Shown: positions 3,499 through 30,946 of the stretch, one piece after another
Layout: each line of letters begins with the position of its first letter
How positions within the stretch are numbered: the stretch's first letter is position 1
DNA from: Chloroflexota bacterium
GTDB taxonomy: Bacteria > Chloroflexota > Dehalococcoidia > SM23-28-2 > RBG-16-64-32
Length of the DNA: 64,000 nt
Direction: 5' to 3'
NCBI GenBank assembly: GCA_037441345.1
Contig: JBBISJ010000006.1
Span: forward strand, 3,530-67,529
Program-made: the position numbers and the translations under genes
Notes under the pieces: model-generated
Databases searched by the model: none
Told to the model about the DNA's origin: nothing
What the model saw: only the letters and a program-made list of their open reading frames with translations

Positions 3499-4974
3499 TC
3501 AGGGCGTTCGCCCAGCCCGGCGCTCGTACCAGCGGACCAGCTTCGCGATCGCGTTCCCCGCGCGGGGAATACTGGGAAAGACCGGGAAGCCCGCACGCCA
3601 CAGCCGCTCCTGGAGCACTGACGCGCGCTCCATTCCTTCCACGTCGAGCGGCGGACGCAACACAATAACAACCGGGACGCCGCAGGCATCGCGGCCGCGC
3701 ACAACCTGATCCACCACCATGTCGACCAGCTGCTCCGGGTTGAAGCCGCCCATGCCCCGCAGAGCACGGCGCCCCGCGCCCAGGCTAACGCTGGCGTGGA
3801 ACATCACCGCGTGGATGTTCGGCGCGCCGCCGGTCAGCGCGATGGTGCGCTCCAGGCTCGGCGGGTCATACGTCGCCATCGTATCCACGGGATTTCGGAC
3901 ACTGGTCCCGGCCGCCGGCGTGAACTCGCTGAGCGCGGCCTGCACATCGGCCGGCAGCGGCGGGCATTCGAGCCCCGCCTCGTCGATCTCGTCCGCCGCG
4001 TGAACGCTGAAGCCGCCACCACCGCCGACAACCGCCACACCGCGTCCTTCCGGCGGCGCCATGAAGCGGAAGGCCGTGACGACGTCAACCATCTCGTCAA
4101 CGCTGTTCACGCTGACCGCGTTCACCTGCCGGCAGAGCGCCGCGAACACCTCGGCCGAGCCGGCGAGGCTTGCTGTGTGCGACATGACGGCACGCGTCCC
4201 CGCCGCGGTGCGCCCGCCCTTCAGAATGACCACGGGCTTGATCGCCGCGGCCTTCTTCAGCGCGCTGAAGAAGCGCCGGCCGTCCCTGACTCCCTCCACG
4301 TACGTCGCGATCACCTCGGTCTCCGGGTCCCCCGCCAGGTAATCCAGTAACTCCGACTCACCGAGGTCGGCCGCGTTCCCGTAGCTCACAACTTTCGAGT
4401 ACCTGATCCCGCGCACAGCGGAGGTGAAGATCATGTCGCCGGCATTCCCGCCGCTCTGGGAGACGAATCCAACCGCGCCGCGCTCAACCGGCGACCCCGG
4501 CATGAAGGCAAGCCCGCTGCCCGGCACGTAGAGCCCCATGCAGTTCGGGCCGATCGCGCGGATACCCGCCGCCGTCACCTTCGCGATCAGGCGCCTCTCC
4601 ATCGCCGCCATCTCCTCGTCGCCGGTCTCCGTGAACCCGGCGGTGAAGAAGTGGATGCTCCGCACACCCTTGGCGATGCAGTCGTCCACTAAGGCGTCGA
4701 CCACGCGAACCGGGACACAGGAGATGACGTGGTCGACCGGCCCGGGGATGTCACGGACGCCCGGGTAGCAGCGCAGCCCCTCGATCTCGTCGTACTTCGG
4801 GTTGACCGGATAGAGGTTCTCGCAGCCGGCTTCCTTGCAGGCGAGGAGAAAGCCCAGGCTGACGCCGCTGAACCCCTTCACCGCCTTTGAGACGCCCACG
4901 ACCGCGACGGACCGGGGGTGGAAGATCTCGTCCAGCGATGCGGACGGCCGCGAAATCGTATCTTCGGTGGTCAT
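3499..4974 (-). CDS. CoA-binding / acetate--CoA ligase (ADP-forming) family protein, alpha-type domains
   Basis: CoA-binding N-terminus (VAVVGVSKAVKGFSG), a succinyl-CoA synthetase alpha-like glycine-rich region (VSQSGGNAGD) and a second flavodoxin-like half. Confidence 0.75.
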   Translation of the reverse strand: MTTEDTISRPSASLDEIFHPRSVAVVGVSKAVKGFSGVSLGFLLACKEAGCENLYPVNPKYDEIEGLRCYPGVRDIPGPVDHVISCVPVRVVDALVDDCIAKGVRSIHFFTAGFTETGDEEMAAMERRLIAKVTAAGIRAIGPNCMGLYVPGSGLAFMPGSPVERGAVGFVSQSGGNAGDMIFTSAVRGIRYSKVVSYGNAADLGESELLDYLAGDPETEVIATYVEGVRDGRRFFSALKKAAAIKPVVILKGGRTAAGTRAVMSHTASLAGSAEVFAALCRQVNAVSVNSVDEMVDVVTAFRFMAPPEGRGVAVVGGGGGFSVHAADEIDEAGLECPPLPADVQAALSEFTPAAGTSVRNPVDTMATYDPPSLERTIALTGGAPNIHAVMFHASVSLGAGRRALRGMGGFNPEQLVDMVVDQVVRGRDACGVPVVIVLRPPLDVEGMERASVLQERLWRAGFPVFPSIPRAGNAIAKLVRWYERRAGRTP

Positions 4975-5116
4975 ATCCAGGAGGCCATCAACCTTAACGT
5001 GCGCGTCAGGTTTCGCGTTGCAGCCTATCAGGGCGCGGGCGCAGGGGTCAAACGGCGTTACCTGAAGAGGCGGCCAATCGGCCGCCTCTTTCCGTTCCTG
5101 CTTCGCCGGACAGCGC

Positions 5117-6160
5117 CTAGCTCAGCCCCATCTCCTGCTTGACGCCGGCCACCGCCTCGACCATGACGCGGAGCTTGTCTTCGCTCTCCTCGACGGTCCG
5201 CGTCTTGAGGCCGCAGTCGGGCAGTACCCAGATCCGCTCGGGGGGCAGACGCTTCAGCGTCCGCCGCAGCCCATCTTTTACCTCGTCAACGGTCTCCGTG
5301 AACCGGGTGTGCACGTCGGTCACGCCCAGCCCCAGGTCCTTGGCGTCGTCATAGCCAAACTCGTCGATCAGGTCAAGGTAGGCGAAATCAGTGTTCTTGA
5401 ACGCCAGATGGATCTGCTTCACGGGCAGCCGCAGCATCGCCGGGTAGATCTTCTCGACTTCGCCGTAGCAGATGTGCGTGTGGAACTCCGCGTCGATGCC
5501 GTCCACCGTGACGTGCATCGCCTCGACGGCCATGTCGAAGTCGGTGTCCGGGCGCGTGTGGATCGCGGGCTCGTCGATCTGGATGTACTTCGCGCCGGCC
5601 TCGACCAGCGCCTCGACCTCACGCCGGATCACCTTCGCCATGTCGAGCACTGCGTCGCGGCGCGACGGGTAGTGCTCGTCGAACGACCACTCCACCATCG
5701 TGTAAGCGCCGGTGAGCATCCCCTTGACCGGTCGCTCCGTCAGGCCCTGCGCGAACTTCCACATGTCGACCGTCATCGGCCCCGGCCACTCGAGCCGGTC
5801 GAAGATGATCGGCTTGTGATAGTAGCGATTGCCATACGAGCGCACCAGTCCACCCAGCTTCATCCCCTTGATCGGCGTCCCGCCCGGCTCCCCCGAGAAG
5901 TAAGCGACCATGTCGCCGCGCTCCATCTCGCCGTGGACGAGGACATCCAGGCCCACCTTCTCCTGGACGCGGATCCAGTACTCGGTCGCCTGCTTCTCCA
6001 GCCTGTCCAGCTCCTCGCGGCCGATCTTGCCCTGGGAGAACTCCGTGCGTGCCTTTGCCAGGTAGTCTGGCTTGGCGTAGCTACCGACGGCCGTCGTAAC
6101 GAGCGTCGTGGGCACGCCGCTCCAGGTCGTTGTTCGCCCGCTTGTCTGCTGTGTAACCAT
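5117..6160 (-). CDS. metE: cobalamin-independent methionine synthase, catalytic (C-terminal-type) domain protein
   Basis: Zn-binding motifs HTHICYGE and LPDCGLKTRT, plus IQIDEPA; about 347 aa, a single-barrel MetE-like protein. Confidence 0.8.
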   Translation of the reverse strand: MVTQQTSGRTTTWSGVPTTLVTTAVGSYAKPDYLAKARTEFSQGKIGREELDRLEKQATEYWIRVQEKVGLDVLVHGEMERGDMVAYFSGEPGGTPIKGMKLGGLVRSYGNRYYHKPIIFDRLEWPGPMTVDMWKFAQGLTERPVKGMLTGAYTMVEWSFDEHYPSRRDAVLDMAKVIRREVEALVEAGAKYIQIDEPAIHTRPDTDFDMAVEAMHVTVDGIDAEFHTHICYGEVEKIYPAMLRLPVKQIHLAFKNTDFAYLDLIDEFGYDDAKDLGLGVTDVHTRFTETVDEVKDGLRRTLKRLPPERIWVLPDCGLKTRTVEESEDKLRVMVEAVAGVKQEMGLS

Positions 6161-9096: not shown

Positions 9097-9768
9097 CTAT
9101 TCGCAGTAGGCCTGAAGCCCTTCAGGGTCGCGGATCACGATCTTTCGGCCCTCGTTCCTTACCAGCCCTCGCTTTCGGAACGCCGAAAGGTTCCGGTTGA
9201 CGCTCTCACGGGTGACGCCGATCATCGTCGCCAGCTCCTCCTGGGTCAGCCGGGTGTTGAGAAGGATCCCGTCCGCACGCCTCAGCCCGTGGTCCGCCGC
9301 GAGGTCCAGCAGCCGCCGCGCCAGGCGGCCGCCGGCGTCCAGATAGCGCAGGTCAGAGATCATCTCGTCGCTCCCGCGCAGTCGCTGCGTCATCACCGCA
9401 AGGACCGATAGCGCCGCCTCCGGGTGCCGTGTGATCAGGTCCGTGAAGTCCCTGCGCTCCAGCACGAGGAGACGGGAGTCGGCCACGGCGGTTGCGCTCG
9501 CGGACCGGGGACTGCCGTCAAGGATCGCCATATCGCCGAAGAACTCACCGGACCCAAGGCGGGCGAGGGTCAGGTCCGCACCGTCAGCTCCGGGTACATG
9601 GATCACCACCGCGCCCGTCTCGACGATGAACAGTGACTCTCCCGGGTCGCCCTTCTGGAAGATGATGTCGCCGCGCGCATACGAACGCTTGTGGACACGC
9701 TCCGCTAGCCAGTCGAAGTCCTCCGGCGCCAGCGCCGCCAGGAACGGGACCCGTTGCAGGAGTTGCAT
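9097..9768 (-). CDS. Crp/Fnr family transcriptional regulator
   Basis: cNMP-binding domain (GDIIFQKGDPGESLFIVETGAV) and a C-terminal HTH (RLTQEELATMIGVTRESVNRNLSAF); internal start MQLLQRVPFL chosen over the extended ORF. Confidence 0.8.
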   Translation of the reverse strand: MQLLQRVPFLAALAPEDFDWLAERVHKRSYARGDIIFQKGDPGESLFIVETGAVVIHVPGADGADLTLARLGSGEFFGDMAILDGSPRSASATAVADSRLLVLERRDFTDLITRHPEAALSVLAVMTQRLRGSDEMISDLRYLDAGGRLARRLLDLAADHGLRRADGILLNTRLTQEELATMIGVTRESVNRNLSAFRKRGLVRNEGRKIVIRDPEGLQAYCE

Positions 9769-9910
9769 CGTTGTAATGCCTCTAATCGCATAGTGCAGGC
9801 TGAACGACGAGACACGCAACCGCCCGCTATCGTGCGATACCGGCTGGTGCGCTACGATAGGTGTCGTTCCCCGCCCCCGGGCGGGGCCATTCAGGCCGTG
9901 GAGGACGCCC

Positions 9911-11098
9911 TTGCACCTCGCCAGGAGAATCGAAAAGCTGCCGCCATACCTCTTCGCCGGGATCAGTAAGAAGATCGCCGAGAAGCGGGGGCAGGGAGTT
10001 GACGTAATCTCGTTCGGCATCGGCGATCCAGACCTGCCCACTCCCTCCCATATCCTCGACTCGCTCGCTGCCGCCTCGCGGGACCCGGTGAACCACAGGT
10101 ACCCGGAGAGTGAGGGTCTCCCCGAGCTGCGGCAGGCGATCGCCCGCTGGTACGGTCGCCGGTTCGCCGTAGAGCTCGATCCGTCGACGGAAGTGCTGCC
10201 GCTGATCGGCTCGAAGGAGGGCATAGGCCACATCGCCCTCTGCTTCATTGACCCCGGCGACATCGCGCTCGTCCCCGACCCGGGCTATCCGGTCTACGGA
10301 GTCGGCACGCTCCTGGCCGGTGGTGAACCCTATTACCTGCCCCTGACCGAGGAGAACGAATTCCTGCCGGACTTCGATGCCGTTCCCGCCCCCGTCGCCG
10401 ACAGGGCGAAGGTCCTCTGGCTGAACTACCCCAACAATCCCACCGGCGCCGTGGCTGATATCGAGTTCTTTGATCGCGCCGTCGCCTTTGCTCGCCGGCA
10501 CGATCTCGCCGTACTTCATGACGGCCCCTACTCTGAGGTCGTATTCGATGGATATCGCCCGGTCAGCTTCCTCCAGGCGGACGGAGCGAGAGAAGTCGGC
10601 ATCGAGTTCCATTCGCTGTCCAAGTCCTACAACATGACGGGATGGCGCATCGGCATGGCCGTGGGCAACCCGGAGATCATCGACGCCCTGATGCGTGTCA
10701 AGTCCAACCTCGACTCTGGCATTCCCCAGGCAATCCAGCAGATGGCGATAACAGCTCTGGACGGCCCTCAGGACGTGATCGCCGAGAACAACACCGTCTA
10801 CCAGCGCCGACGGGACCGGCTGGTCGAGGCGTTATCGAAGCTGGGGCTGCGGGTTAGCCCGCCGAAAGCCAGTCTCTACCTCTGGGCGCGGGTCCCGGAG
10901 ACCATGACGAGCGTCCAGTTCGCCACGCGTCTCCTCGACGACGCCGGTGTGGTCGTGACGCCGGGGAACGGCTACGGCCCAACGGGAGAAGGCTACGTCC
11001 GCCTTTCCCTCACGATCCCGGATGCGCGCCTCGAGGAGGCGGTGCGGCGAATCGAAGCCCTGGCGACGAGCTGGGGCCAGGGAAGCAGCGGGCCGTAG
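9911..11098 (+). CDS. class I/II PLP aminotransferase, LL-diaminopimelate aminotransferase (DapL)-like
   Basis: [11 protein letters not shown]-terminus, the [20 protein letters not shown] motif, and [14 protein letters not shown] (PLP-binding lysine region). Confidence 0.8.
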
Positions 11099-11186
11099 AT
11101 ATTCCCGTTAGCGCGAATCGAGACTACCAACCGTATCGCTGCTGCTTCTGTTACCACTGGATGTACCTTTTCGGGAGGTAACAGAT

Positions 11187-11590
11187 GTGGCGCGCAGCCA
11201 CTATCATTGGGCCGTACTCGCAGCCATCACCGTCCTGCTGGCGGCCCTCCTCGCGATTGCCCGTTCCGGTGCACCAGCCAGCGCAGCAACATTCACCGTT
11301 GACTACACCGCGGACGCGGTGGGCGCAGCCCCCGGTGACGGGGTCCGCGCCACGGCGGGACGCCAGTGCAGCCTCCGCGCCGCCATCCAGGAAGCGCGAA
11401 CGCTCTCGCAGATCCTCCTCCTCCGATGGCGCCGGCTGTCACACCTGTGACCGGCCCCAGCGGGCTGCCGCCCACAGGCGGTTCTCCCGGCAATTCGGAT
11501 CCGACGCGGGACGTGGTTACTGCAATGCTGGTCGCGGCCGGCCTGATAGCGGGGGGTTCACTCCTCCTGGCAACCAGCCGGAGGAGATAG
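11187..11590 (+). CDS. small secreted LPXTG-anchored protein; reading frame broken (0 to +2) near a CCTCCTCCTCC run
   Basis: frame 0: signal peptide HWAVLAAITVLLAALLAIARSGAPASA; frame +2 C-terminus: LPPTGG followed by a hydrophobic TM segment and an RRR tail (sortase sorting signal); frames 0 and +2 overlap between about 11366 and 11450. Confidence 0.4.
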
Positions 11591-11614
11591 CCAGGCGGTT
11601 CTACGAAATAAAGA

Positions 11615-11652
11615 GGGGCCGCGCGAGCTGCGCGGCCCCCTTGTCCATTATT
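11615..11652. terminator. bidirectional intrinsic terminator between the LPXTG gene (+) and ssrA (-)
   Basis: GGGGCCGCGC-GAGCT-GCGCGGCCCC stem-loop flanked by TTGTCCATTATT on the + strand and TCTTTATTTCG on the - strand. Confidence 0.7.
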
Positions 11653-11657
11653 GGAAT

Positions 11658-12015
11658 TGGTGGAGACGGAGGGGAATTGAACCCCTCGTCCAGAAGAAAC
11701 CCGGCCTGGATGTCCTACAAGCTTAGCCGTCGCTTTGATCTTGCCCGCCGTACCGCCGTCGGCCACGTAACCGGCAGGCCAGCCGATGGTCTTTTGTCCC
11801 CCTTATCGGCGTGGGGAGGACAGCACCCCGACATTACGTCGCCGGACTCCGCCCATCGGGGTGAGGCCTGAGCCAGGCGTCGCTAGCCTAAATTAGGCGG
11901 CGAGAGCGTACTGGTTAGTGTTGCCAGTTGCTTTTGCGCCGGTCGATTAACGAGGATCCGGCGTCCTCGGCTTGCAATCCGGGCCCAACTTTCCCTGTCG
12001 AACCCTTGCGTCCCC
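11658..12015 (-). ncRNA. ssrA: tmRNA (SsrA), about 358 nt; tag reading frame ends ...NQYALAA-UAA
   Basis: 5' GGGGACGCAAGGGUUCGACAGGG and 3' GGGGUUCAAUUCCCCUCCGUCUCCACCA (tRNA-like acceptor and T-arm); tag codons GGC AAC ACU AAC CAG UAC GCU CUC GCC GCC UAA at 11893..11925 (- strand). Confidence 0.85.
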
Positions 12016-12026
12016 AGATGACCACA

Positions 12027-12467
12027 TTATAGCAGGAGATCGTGGTTTCCGGGGCGAATGAACTCCGCAAGTCCCAGCGCTACCAGTTGCCAGGGCCCCT
12101 GAACCACGGTCGTCTCAAAGTCAATCCAGGGTGGAAGACCGATCAGTTCGGCAACCTTACGGTAAACCGCCAGATAACACGACATGAACGCTTCCTCATT
12201 CAGGACCGGGCGCCAGCGGCCGAGGCACAAATTCATTGGATCCCCGTCAAGCTCAATGTATATCAGTACAGAGTCGATTCCCCAGACTCCGTAGTAATTG
12301 TCGCACTGGATCACCGGTTGTCTGTGTTCCAGCGCGCTCCACATGAGGTCGTAAAGGCCTCCGAACTCCATTAGGTCCCGGGCCCGGGAGTCGTAGTCTA
12401 TTTCGCCTGGGCGTTCGTCATCGTACTGGTCTGCGAGGAAACCCTCCCTCAAGAGGTCGGCGAGCAA
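12027..12467 (-). CDS. hypothetical protein, low-GC (~54%); likely the 3' part of a frameshifted ~200-aa gene that continues from a 56-codon ORF at 12448..12615
   Basis: only a TTG start is available in this frame; the upstream 56-codon ORF (MGDKVLERYVQERLMERLDALIDLHSKAPGVVMTPEYQ...) overlaps and is translationally coupled to the smpB stop (TGATG). Confidence 0.45.
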   Translation of the reverse strand: MLADLLREGFLADQYDDERPGEIDYDSRARDLMEFGGLYDLMWSALEHRQPVIQCDNYYGVWGIDSVLIYIELDGDPMNLCLGRWRPVLNEEAFMSCYLAVYRKVAELIGLPPWIDFETTVVQGPWQLVALGLAEFIRPGNHDLLL

Positions 12468-12615
12468 CTCATAGAGTATAGGTGAGATGTGAATCTCGTT
12501 AATTGGTACTCGGGCGTCATGACCACCCCGGGTGCCTTCGAGTGCAGGTCGATTAGAGCATCAAGGCGTTCCATGAGTCGCTCTTGGACATAACGTTCGA
12601 GTACTTTGTCCCCCA

Positions 12616-13074
12616 TCAGCCCCTGCGTCTCACCGCCCTCTGCATCGCCCGCTCTGCCTCGCGCTTCGCTATGTCCTGGCGCTTGTCGTACTTCCGTTTC
12701 CCGCGGGCCAGCGCGATCTCGAGCTTGGCGCGTCCGTTCTTGAGGTAGAGACGCAGGGGGATGATCGCAGCTCCGGACGTCGTCGCTTCACGTTCCAGGT
12801 CGTGGATCTCACGCTTGTGCAGCAGTAGCGGCCGACTCCGGGTCGGCTCGTGGTTCATACGGCTCGCCGGGGCGTAGTGGGCGATGTGCGCCCCGACCAG
12901 AAACATCTCGCCGTCCCCTGGACGGATATAAGCCTCGCGGATGCTCGCGTGGCCCTGCCGTATCGACTTGATCTCCGTTCCCGTCAGGGAAAGGCCTGCT
13001 TCCAGCGTACGCAGGATAGCGTAGTCAAACCCCGCCCGGCGGTTGGTCGCGACGGTTTTCTCGCCCGCGTTCAC
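12616..13074 (-). CDS. smpB: SsrA-binding protein SmpB
   Basis: N-terminal motif NRRAGFDYAILRTLEAGLSLTGTEIKSIRQG and a C-terminal basic tail. Confidence 0.9.
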   Translation of the reverse strand: MNAGEKTVATNRRAGFDYAILRTLEAGLSLTGTEIKSIRQGHASIREAYIRPGDGEMFLVGAHIAHYAPASRMNHEPTRSRPLLLHKREIHDLEREATTSGAAIIPLRLYLKNGRAKLEIALARGKRKYDKRQDIAKREAERAMQRAVRRRG

Positions 13075-13112
13075 TTCCTTATCTTCTCACGGGGAGCGCT
13101 CGACATAACTCC

Positions 13113-14405
13113 TTATCTGGCCCTGGCGGCAAGTTCTTGCTCAAGCAGGTCGATTGCCGCGCTCATCTGCGGGCCGTAGCCGCTCTGGAGTTCGTCGCTC
13201 AGTTCCTGCGGTGTCAACTCCACCGGTACGTCCGGCGCCAGGCCGACACCTTCGATAAGAGTGCCGTTGGGGGTCAGCCAGCGGGCGATCGTGACGTACA
13301 GGGCGCCCCCGTTCGACAGCTCCCTCAGGTGGTTGACCGACCCTTTGCCGAACGTCTGCGACCCGACGAGCTTCGCCCGCCCGTGGTCGCGCAACGCCCC
13401 GGCCAGCACTTCCGAGCCGGACGCCGAACCGCCGCTCACGAGAATCACCACGGGTATGTCGGTGGCCTCACCGCCGCCTTTGGCGTTGTACTCCGTCTTG
13501 TTGCCCTCACGGTCCACCTGGGTGAGGACGAGGCCGCCGTCGAGAAACATGTCGGCCACGGATACCGTTGCATCCAGGCCGCCGCCTGGGTTCCGCCGAA
13601 GGTCGAGGATCAGGCCTTCGTACCCCTCATCGCTAATCCGCTCCAGCTCAGTTCGTAGGTCGTTGACCGTCTGCTCGGTGAACTGCTGGATTTCGATATA
13701 CGCCAGGCCGGGCACCGCGTCGCCGTTCTCGTCCTGCGCATCGTGCGCAAAGACGGTCGGGATGACGATCGTGCCACGCGTGATCACGAGCTCCTCCTCC
13801 TGGCGGTCGCTGTGCCGTACCGTTAGGGTTACCTTTGTACCCTGTTCACCACGGATCTTCTGCACGGCGTCTTGCACGCTCCAGCCTTCGGTGGACTCGC
13901 CATTAACCTCAAGGATCACGTCGCCGGGCAGGATGCCCGCCTTTTCGGCAGGTGAGCCGCGGAACGGGGTAACTATTGTGATCTCGCCCGTCGTCGGGTC
14001 CTGGTCGACATTCGCCCCGATCCCCTCGAAACTCCCGGAGATGATGTCAATCCCGCTCTGGTATTCCTCCGGGGTGATGTACACGCTGTGCGGATCCCCC
14101 AGAGAAGCGATGATCCCGTCGATCGCGCCCTTTTCCAGTGCGTCGTGCGTGATCGCGTCCGGGTTGACGAAATCCTCGCCCAGGATCGACTCGATCTCGT
14201 CGAGGATGCTGTATCCATCGTCGTCACTACTGCCGTCGCCGGGGTCGATGTCGGTGACAGTCGTCCGGCTGCCCCCTCCATCGCCCACTGCGTACCCAAC
14301 GACGCCGGCCAGCGCAACGGTCAGCGCCACAATCAGGCCGGCAAGTGTCCACTTAAGGGTGTTCCACATTCGAATTACCTCCGGGGTTGCTACCCCGATT
14401 GACAT
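13113..14405 (-). CDS. ctpA: carboxyl-terminal processing protease (S41 family, CtpA/Prc-like) with PDZ domain
   Basis: N-terminal TM segment, PDZ motif (GILPGDVILEVNGEST), and the S41 catalytic region (RRNPGGGLD, SGGSASGSEVLAGALRDHG). Confidence 0.85.
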   Translation of the reverse strand: MSIGVATPEVIRMWNTLKWTLAGLIVALTVALAGVVGYAVGDGGGSRTTVTDIDPGDGSSDDDGYSILDEIESILGEDFVNPDAITHDALEKGAIDGIIASLGDPHSVYITPEEYQSGIDIISGSFEGIGANVDQDPTTGEITIVTPFRGSPAEKAGILPGDVILEVNGESTEGWSVQDAVQKIRGEQGTKVTLTVRHSDRQEEELVITRGTIVIPTVFAHDAQDENGDAVPGLAYIEIQQFTEQTVNDLRTELERISDEGYEGLILDLRRNPGGGLDATVSVADMFLDGGLVLTQVDREGNKTEYNAKGGGEATDIPVVILVSGGSASGSEVLAGALRDHGRAKLVGSQTFGKGSVNHLRELSNGGALYVTIARWLTPNGTLIEGVGLAPDVPVELTPQELSDELQSGYGPQMSAAIDLLEQELAARAR

Positions 14406-14757
14406 AAGGGCCGCACCAGCGACCGGACGCCCTGATCATTCGACGCAACTCGGCCGCCCCGCGTTGCCTGGCGGGGATATCCCGGCCCGGCTTCCAGACT
14501 GAGTGTAGCATTGGGTGCGCATCCGTCGCCAATGCACGGCGACCGCTTGCCGCAGGCTCGCGCGACAGTCATCACTAGTTCGCTACGATCCGACCAGGGC
14601 CCTCGGTTCTCGCCTCACTCCCCTATCCCCACGCCACATAACATATATAGTGCGAACCGCCCTCACAATGCGGAAGCACGCTCACGGGGCGACGCGCCCG
14701 GACTTGCGGCACATCTCGGATGACACTGCCGGCGCCCGGAAGGTATGCTCGTCCGGC

Positions 14758-15243
14758 ATGACTCACAGGATAACGCTCGAACGGAACACGCTGAGGTTCG
14801 CCGCGGCCCACTTCACTACCGCCGGGAGCGAGTGCGAACCCCTGCACGGCCACAACTACGATGTCGTCATCCATATCGAGGGCGAACTCACCGGGGATGG
14901 CTGGATTCTTGACTTCGGCGTGGTGAAGCAACTCGCTCGCGGCGTGGCGCAGGAGCTGGACCACCGCTTCATCCTCCAGGCAGCCGGCGGCCGCATCTCC
15001 TGGCACCATAGCGGGAGCGAGATTGAGGTGCGGCACGGCGAACGGCGTTATGTCATCCCCTCGAGCGATGTCGCCGTGCTCGACATCGACAATTCCACCG
15101 CCGAGCGGCTGGCCGAGTGGTTCGCCCGCCGCTTGTGGCGGGAGTTGGAGCAACGGGGAGCCACCAACATATCCCGGGTGTCGGTCGGCATCGAGGAAAT
15201 GCCGGGCCAGACGGGATGGTTCACGCTGGATGTGCGCGGCTAG
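14758..15243 (+). CDS. 6-pyruvoyl-tetrahydropterin synthase family protein (QueD/PTPS-like)
   Basis: CEPLHGHNYDVVIHIEGEL (Zn-binding His triad region); internal start MTHRITLERN chosen over the extended ORF. Confidence 0.75.
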   Translation: MTHRITLERNTLRFAAAHFTTAGSECEPLHGHNYDVVIHIEGELTGDGWILDFGVVKQLARGVAQELDHRFILQAAGGRISWHHSGSEIEVRHGERRYVIPSSDVAVLDIDNSTAERLAEWFARRLWRELEQRGATNISRVSVGIEEMPGQTGWFTLDVRG

Positions 15244-15368
15244 CGGCATCAAATCGGCCGGGTGCCTGTTGACAGCCTTGTCAAAAGCCATAAGATAGGT
15301 GCTTGCCGATTGGCCTGCGCGCCGTCCACAGGGGGGTGGGCGCCGACGCGGCCTTCAAGGAAGGGGCT

Positions 15369-15914
15369 ATGAAGATCGACTGGCAGCAGGCAATCAACGA
15401 TATCCTGGCGAAGAAGCTATCGTGCCCCCGCTGCGGCACGTTGACCGACGACGTCTTCGTCGGCTTCCTGCGAATACCCGAGGCGTCAGAGTGGGCGCCG
15501 CTTTGCGAAGGCTGCACCAAGAAAGAGAGCTGCGATGCTCGCAAGTTCGTGCTCCTCTGCGAGGACTGCGCCAACCACCTGCGACTCCGCGGCCGCAAGG
15601 TGGACGAGGAAGGCTTCATGCGCGCCCTCCTGGAGGAGTGCCGCCGCAACCTCGAGGAAACGCTCGACTACCTCGCCGACTTCTGGCGCGAGGACCTCGA
15701 CATCGACCCGGACGAGATGGACAAACGCCTCGAAGACGTGGATCCGGAGCTGTTTGACGAGGAGAACACATGGCGCTGCTACCTCGAGGAGCAGTACCTC
15801 AAGATCCACGCCTGGTTCCGCGAACGCCACCTCGGGATACCGGATCCAGGCTGGCGCTCAGAGTACGCCGAGGACATCATCGCCACCGGGTACAGCACCA
15901 TCCTGGGCGACTGA
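15369..15914 (+). CDS. hypothetical Cys-rich (CxxC x3) zinc-ribbon-like protein with an acidic C-terminal half
   Basis: CPRC, CEGC and CEDC motifs; no recognisable family; start MKIDWQQ. Confidence 0.5.
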   Translation: MKIDWQQAINDILAKKLSCPRCGTLTDDVFVGFLRIPEASEWAPLCEGCTKKESCDARKFVLLCEDCANHLRLRGRKVDEEGFMRALLEECRRNLEETLDYLADFWREDLDIDPDEMDKRLEDVDPELFDEENTWRCYLEEQYLKIHAWFRERHLGIPDPGWRSEYAEDIIATGYSTILGD

Positions 15915-15998
15915 CCGGCTAGCCGCAGCAACTACTGGCAACATCAAGCAGACACGGGCCGGCGCCCGTCCCACTGGAACTGTTAAGGAGGGACAACA

Positions 15999-17552
15999 GT
16001 GACGCTATTCAATAGCCCATGGTTCTCCATCGAACCTTATCCGGAGCTCTCGCTTCCCGACTTCCTCGCTCCCGCTGCCGATAGGTACGCCGAGAGAACC
16101 GCGTTGATCAGCTTCGATGGCCAGACCTACAGCTTCGCCCACACGTGGGAGTCCTGCCGGCGCCTCGGAAGGTTCCTTCAGGACGCCGGCATCAGCAAGG
16201 GTGACCGAGTGGCCATCTTCTCGGCGAACTCACCCGAGTACTTCGTCACCTTTTTCGGCATCCTCTGTGCCGGTGCCACGGTCACTACCCTCAACCCCCT
16301 TTACAAGGAACGCGAACTCCTCCACCAACTCGAGGACTGCAGCGCCACCGCGATCTTCGCCATGGGTGCCCTTTCCCCCATCGTCGAGAGCGTTCGTGCC
16401 CACCTCCCTTCTCTCAAGCACGCCTTCATCATCGAAGACGTCTGGAAGATCGCCGCGGACGCACCTCCGGACCTCGGCCCCGTCAGCATCAATGCCCGCG
16501 AGGACATCGCCGCCCTCCCCTACTCCTCGGGCACCACTGGTCTTCCCAAGGGCGTTATGTTAACTCACTACAACCTGGTGTCTAACGTTCGCCAGACACT
16601 CACAACCGGCATCAGTTCCGGCTACGGCACCTACCTCGACTTCCTGCCGTTCTTCCATATCTACGGCATGGTCGTGCTCATGGCCTGCGGTTTCGCCGCC
16701 GGCCTGCCCCAGGTCATCATGCCTCGGTTTGACCCCGCCCTCTGCCTCGACCTCATACAGAGGTACAAGGTCACCAACCTCTTCGCCGTTCCGCCCGCCC
16801 TGCTGGCGTTGTCCCACTTCCCTGACACCGCTAAGTACGACACCTCCAGCCTCTCCATGATCATGAGCGGCGCCGCTCCCCTTCCCGCGGAAGTCGCGCG
16901 CGCAGCAGCGAAGGCGCTCGACACCACCGTCCTCCAGGGCTACGGCATGACGGAGACCAGCCCTGTCACAAACGTCAACCCCGTTACCCGCATCAAGGAC
17001 TCCACTGTCGGCCCGCCCGTCGCCGACACGGTCCAGAAGGTCGTCTCGCTGGACGACGGCCGGGACCTGGGTGTTGGCGAAGTCGGTGAGCTCCTGACCT
17101 TTGGCCCGCAGGTTATGAAGGGATACTGGAACGCCCCGGAGGCGACCGCTGAAACACTCCCCGGCGGCGGCTGGATACGCACCGGTGACATCGTCTCGGT
17201 GGATCAGGAGGGTTATGTGACGATCCTCGACCGCAAGAAGGAGATGATCAAGTACAAGGGATACCAGATCGCGCCGGCCGAACTTGAAGCGCTTCTGCTC
17301 GAGCACCCGGCGGTGATGGATTCGGCAGTCATTCCGAAGCGTGACGATGAGTCGGGAGAGATCCCCAAGGCGTTCGTCCTGCTGAGGGAAGGCCACGAAA
17401 CGAGTGTCGAAGACCTCATGCGCTTCGTCGAACAGCGCGTTGCCCCCTACAAGAAAGTCCGCGAGATCGAATTCGTTGAAGCGATCCCGAAGACCGCGTC
17501 CGGCAAGATCCTGCGCCGGGAGCTTATCGAACAAGAGCGCGCAAAGGCGTAG
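15999..17552 (+). CDS. AMP-dependent synthetase/ligase (acyl-CoA synthetase, 4-coumarate-CoA-ligase-like)
   Basis: AMP-binding motif LPYSSGTTGLPKGVMLTH, plus YGMTETS, GWIRTGDI and KILRREL. Confidence 0.85.
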   Translation: MTLFNSPWFSIEPYPELSLPDFLAPAADRYAERTALISFDGQTYSFAHTWESCRRLGRFLQDAGISKGDRVAIFSANSPEYFVTFFGILCAGATVTTLNPLYKERELLHQLEDCSATAIFAMGALSPIVESVRAHLPSLKHAFIIEDVWKIAADAPPDLGPVSINAREDIAALPYSSGTTGLPKGVMLTHYNLVSNVRQTLTTGISSGYGTYLDFLPFFHIYGMVVLMACGFAAGLPQVIMPRFDPALCLDLIQRYKVTNLFAVPPALLALSHFPDTAKYDTSSLSMIMSGAAPLPAEVARAAAKALDTTVLQGYGMTETSPVTNVNPVTRIKDSTVGPPVADTVQKVVSLDDGRDLGVGEVGELLTFGPQVMKGYWNAPEATAETLPGGGWIRTGDIVSVDQEGYVTILDRKKEMIKYKGYQIAPAELEALLLEHPAVMDSAVIPKRDDESGEIPKAFVLLREGHETSVEDLMRFVEQRVAPYKKVREIEFVEAIPKTASGKILRRELIEQERAKA

Positions 17553-30871: not shown

Positions 30872-30946
30872 GGGGCAGTACCTCAAGGGTAGAGGATCAG
30901 TCTTATAAACTGACGGTTGCGGGTTCGAGTCCTGCCTGCCCCACCA
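30872..30946 (+). tRNA. tRNA with anticodon UAU (tRNA-Ile, AUA-decoding type), CCA encoded
   Basis: acceptor GGGGCAG paired with CTGCCCC, D-stem CCTC/GAGG, anticodon stem TCAGT/ACTGA with loop CTTATAA, T-arm GCGGG-TTCGAGT-CCTGC, discriminator A. Confidence 0.7.

Follow-up and report, generated by a model that had tools for sequence, protein, structure and literature searches.

The interval between smpB and the tmRNA gene (ssrA) in a 64-kb stretch of an uncultured Chloroflexota genome (64,000 nucleotides, hereafter the window) probably holds a single lineage-specific orphan gene (ORFan) of ~196 codons, inactivated by a frameshift and decaying as a pseudogene in an interval that is variable among relatives. 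On the minus strand, the order of elements is peptidase, smpB, the interval of ~590 bp (12027-12615) and ssrA, with the following features:

13113-14405, minus strand: gene of an S41 (Ctp-type) peptidase, upstream of smpB
12616-13074, minus strand: smpB, full length, 152 aa (list of open reading frames; Pfam SmpB, 6.2e-55, profile positions 1-142 of 143)
12618-12616, minus strand: TGA stop codon of smpB, its final A being the first A of the orphan-gene ATG
12503-12616, minus strand: 5' segment of the orphan gene, frame 1 (MGDKVLERYVQERLMERLDALIDLHSKAPGVVMTPEYQ) (translation, GC by codon phase, host-codon score)
12498-12510, minus strand: inferred frameshift site, junction GAGTACCAATTAACGAG (codon-usage likelihood, with a concordant switch of GC phase)
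12027-12503, minus strand: 3' segment of the orphan gene, frame 3 (…INEIHISPILYELLADLLREGFLADQYDDE…GPWQLVALGLAEFIRPGNHDLLL, then the stop codon) (translation, GC by codon phase, best-scoring coding suffix)
12026-12034, minus strand: putative extended -10 promoter of ssrA, TGcTATAAT (consensus, comparison with relatives)
11658-12015, minus strand: one-piece tmRNA gene ssrA, tag GNTNQYALAA (ARAGORN; Rfam RF00023, 165.1 bits, model positions 1-374 of 374)
11614-11640, minus strand: intrinsic-terminator-like hairpin with a T-rich tail (CTTTATTTCG) (terminator scan)

Two open reading frames on the minus strand cover the interval. ORF1 (12449-12616, 55 aa) begins with an ATG that overlaps the smpB stop as TGATG (12618-12614) and is preceded, 3 nt upstream and within smpB, by a Shine-Dalgarno-like AGGGG. 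ORF2 (12027-12467, 146 aa) has only TTG starts and ends at a TAA (12029-12027); its frame (-1 relative to ORF1) is open upstream to 12560, so that frame 3 remains open over 178 codons. Both the TGATG overlap and the restriction of ORF2 to TTG starts had been pointed out in the preliminary description and are present in the sequence. Public gene callers give only the last 141 aa of frame 3 (P0001), from the TTG at 12452, and ORF1 is absent from every public gene-call source checked. Taken as one unit, the orphan gene fills exactly the space from the smpB stop to the ssrA promoter, its own stop codon lying inside the -10 box. On the opposite strand, the Logan annotation lists a gene of 228 aa (11185-11871, plus strand) antisense across the tmRNA gene, which is almost certainly a spurious high-GC ORF.

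The reduced GC content of these ~590 bp, already remarked upon in the preliminary description, is evident from a value of 0.552 vs. a window mean of 0.654 (sd 0.025, 590-nt windows), making the interval the lowest-GC 590-nt stretch of the entire window (0.02% of windows equal or lower), with GC3 at 0.66 vs. ~0.80 in neighbouring genes. The interval is confirmed to carry genuine protein-coding sequence, beyond what is expected by chance. Thus, GC by codon phase is strongly uneven in the ORF2 frame (GC1/GC2/GC3 = 0.65/0.34/0.67; chi-square p = 5e-10) as well as in frame 1 over the first 38 codons of ORF1 (0.74/0.29/0.63; p = 2e-4). In a codon log-odds model trained on the 36 long genes of the window, the ORF2 frame scores +25.9 bits (0 of 5000 shuffles rose above -1.3 in any of the six frames), the host-codon score over the 5' segment is positive in frame 1 only, and the best-scoring coding suffix is 12027-12503. 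A plus-strand ORF of 110 aa (12042-12374) was rejected by its negative host-codon score. One could also regard the interval as a non-coding spacer or a mobile-element scar with ORFs arisen by chance, as AT-rich intergenic DNA is typical of spacers and one relative (L091, see below) has an ORF-free low-GC insert of ~195 bp at the equivalent place; however, the three-base periodicity, a host-codon score reached in none of the 5000 shuffles and the 178 open codons of frame 3 effectively refute this view, to which we assign next to no probability. As a separate observation, the window contains a tRNA-Ile gene with anticodon TAT (UAU) at 30872-30946 (plus strand, ARAGORN); a UAU tRNA is an uncommon bacterial route to reading AUA, most bacteria using a lysidine-modified CAU tRNA.

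The proposal of a ~200-aa protein split across two frames is upheld by codon statistics, at ~196-197 aa. The proposed frameshift is likewise present, although not at 12440-12480, where it had been placed, but best located at ~12498-12510, ~40 nt upstream. The codon-usage likelihood favours a single switch at 12505-12502 (…GVVMTPEY(Q) / (I)NEIHISP…) on a plateau extending over 12475-12520, and sliding codon scores as well as GC phase both change from frame 1 to frame 3 at ~12500-12530. Past the switch, the formal ORF1 continues out of frame to the TGA at 12449, and these last 17 codons (LTRFTSHLYSMSCSPTS) score as non-coding, as does the upstream extension of frame 3 (CSNRPALEGTRGGHDARVP), while frame 3 is coding from 12503 on; that is, adjoining segments are coding in different frames and their out-of-frame tails are non-coding, as in a frameshifted pseudogene. 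One gene of ~196-197 codons split over two frames, and not two coupled genes, is the best-supported reading, because the frame-switch model (33.4 bits) exceeds a two-gene model with ORF1 running to its own stop (15.0 bits) by ~18 bits, the tails are non-coding, the TTG starts have no Shine-Dalgarno sequence and the junction is plain; both this reading and the switch position rest on codon statistics derived from host genes, with a likelihood that is flat over ~45 nt. Relative to an intact gene, the best-supported lesion is 1 nt missing or 2 nt extra near 12498-12510. The junction reads GAG TAC CAA TTA ACG AGA and is homopolymer-free, and a search of it for a slippery heptamer of the X XXY YYZ type found none. 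Programmed -1 ribosomal frameshifting was rejected on account of this absence and of the ORF1 stop context, which would bar -1 re-pairing.

The alternative of two real small genes, one of 55 aa coupled to smpB (TGATG) and one of 141-146 aa coupled to the first (through TTGA, 12452-12449, in which the TTG at 12452 runs into the ORF1 stop), which might together form a cassette, e.g., of the toxin-antitoxin type, would draw on the presence of both stop/start overlaps, on the 141-aa ORF in public gene calls and on a sigma-70-like site that precedes ORF2. We consider it improbable, given that it is ~18 bits worse by host-codon likelihood than a switch at ~12503, that it would treat the non-coding last 17 codons of ORF1 as coding and leave out the coding frame 3 from 12503, that its second gene would start at a TTG without a Shine-Dalgarno sequence (none was found before the ORF2 TTG starts), and that ORF1 is called by no source. 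The sigma-70-like site itself (TTAACG-16-TATACT, 12502-12475, minus strand) is the sole two-hexamer match of the region and coincides with the probable frameshift site; as an ORF2 promoter it was rejected, one match being found vs. 0.5 expected by chance. Reinitiation at the TTG at 12452 could yield a C-terminal fragment.

With respect to the single broken gene, the frameshift is likelier to be real than a sequencing error. The Logan assembly of run SRR11582173 includes a contig of 7065 bp whose sequence matches positions 9500-16564 of the window at 100% identity, the two having been produced by different assemblers, probably from one and the same run. A sequencing error, which had been suggested along with decay, is judged less likely because the second assembler gave the identical sequence and the junction is not a homopolymer, and frequent random indel errors are disfavoured because no disruption is apparent in the window's other long genes; decay of the gene is thus the probable state, a consensus error or minority allele being the less likely rivals. 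The corresponding alternative, in which the gene is intact in the organism and the frameshift is either a sequencing/consensus artefact or due to the assembler having fixed a minority allele, would imply a functional acidic ~196-aa protein co-expressed with SmpB by translational coupling. It would fit a MAG of unknown coverage, a coding signal that is undiminished on either side of the junction, the complete lack of in-frame stops or further lesions in both segments, and the state of a small gene 1 kb away (11187-11590), which also seems to be in two frames and could hint at local consensus problems. The identical contig from the second assembler, the non-homopolymer junction and the large genes of the window, with no sign of splitting, render it unlikely. 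A junction with one extra base, e.g., CCAATTAAACGAG, would equal an intact gene (or a polymorphism, if mixed).

The small gene just mentioned lies just past the tmRNA terminator on the plus strand and seemingly runs in two frames (11187-11450 and 11366-11590). In its product, a signal peptide and CSLREA motif are followed by a linker rich in Pro, then by LPPTG, a TM helix and an RRR tail. Conceptual joining gives 133 aa, with an above-cutoff match to TIGR04214 CSLREA_Nterm (8e-8) and a weak one to an LPXTG anchor. Possibly, two frameshifted accessory genes lie within 1.3 kb of each other here.

The repaired orphan protein (~196-197 aa, ~22.8 kDa, pI 4.36, 34 D+E vs. 15 K+R, GRAVY -0.03) would be, if intact, acidic, soluble and cytoplasmic. 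It has no recognisable family, in agreement with the preliminary description: profile searches with Pfam-A (hmmscan, E <= 10), NCBIfam, PADLOC and PHROGs returned no families. A word-indexed search of the 197-aa sequence against 5.8e9 protein clusters (E <= 0.01 and E <= 10) recovered only the protein itself, as did an exhaustive phmmer search of 1.84e9 representatives of ~15 billion proteins. No relatives were detected among PDB sequences, in phage genomes (tblastn) or, at the DNA level, by scans of metagenome and viral contigs with back-translated patterns, and the only tblastn match among plasmids (E = 0.3, under a nanR gene) is a chance one. An intact, GC-typical copy in related genomes, which would have spoken for an ancient resident, was therefore looked for in vain, as no relative was found at all. 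With no homologues to align, single-sequence AlphaFold2 models reached a pLDDT of only 39.8 (repaired protein) and 42.0 (frame-3 part).

A SUKH/Imm-like identity had been offered as one possibility for this protein. SUKH/immunity-type families diverge fast and produce many orphans, and a very divergent, horizontally acquired protein of the SUKH/SMI1-KNR4 type, or another immunity- or antitoxin-like protein, would be small, acidic and soluble as is this one; both low-confidence AlphaFold models also show helices, a four-strand meander and a long helix. The order of secondary-structure elements is not evidence at a pLDDT of 40-42, however, and neither Pfam (no SUKH/Imm match at E <= 10) nor PADLOC (no match) lends support. 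No polymorphic-toxin gene was found beside the orphan gene, its neighbours being smpB and ssrA and then the S41 peptidase and an aminotransferase. The suggestion is, in our estimate, very unlikely.

As for the origin of the insert, its atypical composition is consistent with the suggested horizontal acquisition. We infer a foreign source, a donor of moderate GC content (~55%), because the composition (55% GC, GC3 0.66) fits such a donor better than a host of 65% GC; searches for the donor, for a mobile-element gene or for a flanking repeat of the insert found none. The further argument that tmRNA loci are classic integration targets does not carry over to this locus, as the insert (12027-12615) lies on the 5' side of ssrA, beyond its promoter (12034-12026) and 5' end (12015), and not on the 3' side as in an island, and as both an integrase and a displaced ssrA fragment are absent. 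Comparison of the tmRNA with the whole window (blastn-short) produced only chance matches of <= 18 aligned nt, the best-supported being 14 nt (E = 0.07). No flanking repeats were found around the insert, and no integrase either, the 0.6 kb holding just the orphan ORF. Pfam analysis of the called genes of the 7-kb contig identified PTPS, PDZ/Peptidase_S41, SmpB and an aminotransferase, with three further genes having no match and two genes cut at the contig ends left out. A classical tmRNA island was rejected on these combined grounds (5' position, no integrase, no ssrA fragment, no flanking repeats).

The idea that the orphan gene rides a common smpB-ssrA transcript is not supported: ssrA has its own putative promoter, although transcription probably does run on from smpB into the orphan gene. 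The -10 box of ssrA (TGcTATAAT) stops 10 nt short of the mature tmRNA 5' end and includes the orphan TAA within TATAAT. The 100 nt preceding the tmRNA gene were compared between the window and nine relatives. A hexamer of the TAnAAT/TATAGT type occurs in eight of the nine (L003, L004, L005-L007, L012, L016 and L078, in addition to the window), 5-11 nt ahead of the mature 5' end (GGGG), with the TGn extension preceding it in six of these eight; no -10-type box was seen upstream of the tmRNA gene in L028. In relatives with only 31-53 bp from smpB to ssrA (L005-L007, L090, L092), the smpB TAG lies in or just before a -35-like TAGGCA or TAGCCA. The insert thus appears to occupy exactly the space that separates the smpB stop from the ssrA -10 region, having replaced the -35 element. 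Extended -10 (TGn) promoters can compensate for a missing -35. The ssrA gene would therefore need no ride on the smpB transcript, because a conserved extended -10 promoter of its own directly follows the insert. For the orphan gene, a sigma-70-type scan of the region yielded no promoter standing out from chance. Being on the same strand, with a start codon overlapping the upstream stop and no minus-strand terminator before 11640, it has the arrangement of an smpB-operon member. Indeed, from smpB to the end of ssrA, the terminator scan found a single terminator-like site on this strand, namely the hairpin at 11614-11640 (11 pairs, 10 of them G-C), just past the tmRNA 3' end. Because there is no terminator after smpB, and because of the ATG-stop overlap and the AGGGG, the orphan gene would be transcribed by read-through from the ctpA-smpB unit and would be translated, up to its lesion, by termination-reinitiation coupling at TGATG behind the Shine-Dalgarno-like AGGGG.

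The smpB-ssrA interval varies widely among relatives, and the premise that the two genes are usually adjacent is only partially correct. Among 160 related loci, smpB and ssrA are adjacent in 32 and separated by 151-3000 bp in 13, with no tmRNA gene over at least 1 kb downstream in 81. These counts agree with a published survey in which ssrA is the commonest neighbour of smpB, yet in fewer than half of genomes (Hudson et al., 2014, PMC4131195). The expected adjacency in relatives without the insert is seen in more distant ones (31-53 bp at 62-66% SmpB identity, L091 excepted), while in close relatives the gap holds unrelated genes or the two genes are unlinked. In L082 and L002 (81-84% SmpB identity), either pheT or a peptidase-MA gene plus prfB comes after smpB, and no tmRNA gene is present over the next 997 nt and 3964 nt, respectively. 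The gap amounts to 541-2591 bp in L003, L004, L085 and L087 (67-75%). The first three of these (72-75%) carry in it one or two TadE/Tad-pilus-like genes, antisense to smpB and ssrA (minus strand in locus orientation: L003, 4490-5830; L004, 4509-5603; L085, 1541-2650 and 2809-3924), one of the TadE/Tad-pilus-like genes with a VWA domain, and L087 has a CBS-domain gene there. In L012 (59%), a same-strand ORF of 261 aa (4462-5247, plus strand) overlaps smpB as ATGA ahead of ssrA, apparently another example of coupling to smpB in this position; it matches no Pfam family and bears no relation to the orphan gene of the window. A derivation of the insert from any of these gap genes (TadE/VWA, CBS, L012 ORF) was rejected, as tblastn, blastp and phmmer gave nothing significant on either strand, and neither the window nor the 160 fetched loci yielded a paralogue or repeat of the insert.

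Two further observations concern inserts of other kinds. In L091 (3445-3670), an ORF-free insert of ~195 bp lies between the smpB stop and an intact TAGGCA...TATAAT ssrA promoter, in a 226-nt gap with a GC content of 0.51 vs. 0.64 for the locus. L090 and L092, which are closely related, lack the insert, and no copies of it occur elsewhere in the fetched loci; it is predicted to fold at -70 kcal/mol, a value calculated without a shuffle control. In several Clostridia genomes, smpB-ssrA gaps of 360-510 bp contain a same-strand ORF of ~100-110 aa with low GC2 (plus strand: L040, 4445-4747; L059, 4414-4746; L066, 4420-4743; L075, 4437-4763; L080, 3344-3646), in Hominibacterium, Anaerovorax, Zhenpiania, an Eubacteriaceae MAG and an Eubacteriales MAG. 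Only sub-threshold Pfam matches of coiled-coil type (DUF4200, DivIC) were obtained for four of these five ORFs, and none for that of L075; a small gene may be conserved at this place in that lineage.

Overall, the scenario that we favour would start with a gene acquired from a ~55% GC donor in an unsampled gene pool and inserted into a recombination-tolerant smpB-ssrA interval. A real 1-nt deletion or 2-nt insertion near 12498-12510 would then stop its translation after 55 codons and leave the downstream 141-146 codons with TTG starts devoid of a Shine-Dalgarno sequence; because of this change of register and these starts, an inactivated pseudogene is the most likely outcome. The orphan gene would have no present role in trans-translation, ssrA being unaffected and presumably expressed from its own promoter. 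Ordinary biology is thus the most likely overall account, i.e., a singleton orphan pseudogene that is not demonstrably linked to trans-translation and that matters little on present evidence. A functional orphan gene (through an error in the sequence or two coupled products), as an as yet unseen accessory factor co-expressed with SmpB, or an interval serving as a targeted insertion hotspot in Chloroflexota, strikes us as very improbable; if the former were true, the protein could, for example, modulate trans-translation or exploit the constitutive smpB operon, and an intact and functional protein would count as a new candidate partner in the trans-translation operon. Beyond the fate of this one gene, the analysis illustrates that codon statistics alone can place a frameshift without any homologue and that DNA beside ssrA need not imply classical tmRNA-targeted integration. 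Within this clade of Chloroflexota, unrelated DNA appears to have repeatedly filled or broken the short stretch from the smpB stop to the ssrA promoter, with the extended -10 conserved.

The locus was compared with four known systems. Islands in tmRNA genes, defined by tyrosine-integrase-mediated insertion into a tmRNA gene that is thereby regenerated, with a displaced piece of it at the far end (Islander, PMC4383910), and described at ssrA in Dehalococcoides (PMC3146451), share with it foreign-looking DNA beside ssrA in a Chloroflexota genome; unlike them, the insert is located 5' of ssrA, upstream of the promoter, rather than within or 3' of the gene, and amounts to only 0.6 kb with no tyrosine integrase, displaced ssrA fragment or direct repeat. 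Conserved smpB neighbourhoods (ssrA, ratA/rnfH, RNase R, RF-2, SecG; Hudson, Lau and Williams, 2014, PMC4131195) resemble it in having a same-strand gene after smpB and in the smpB-ssrA linkage kept in the window, whereas the orphan gene belongs to no recurrent neighbour family and occurs in a single genome. The SUKH (SMI1/KNR4) immunity proteins are similar to the orphan protein in size and acidity and differ from it in having a profile match and a partner toxin gene. Finally, bacterial ORFans are reportedly short, A+T-richer than their genomes, fast-evolving and often pseudogenised (e.g., Daubin and Ochman, 2004). The orphan gene follows this picture in being short, ~10 points lower in GC than its host, free of homologues, frameshifted and situated in a variable interval, and departs from it in filling the smpB-ssrA space exactly, overlapping the smpB stop with its start codon and the ssrA -10 box with its stop codon.
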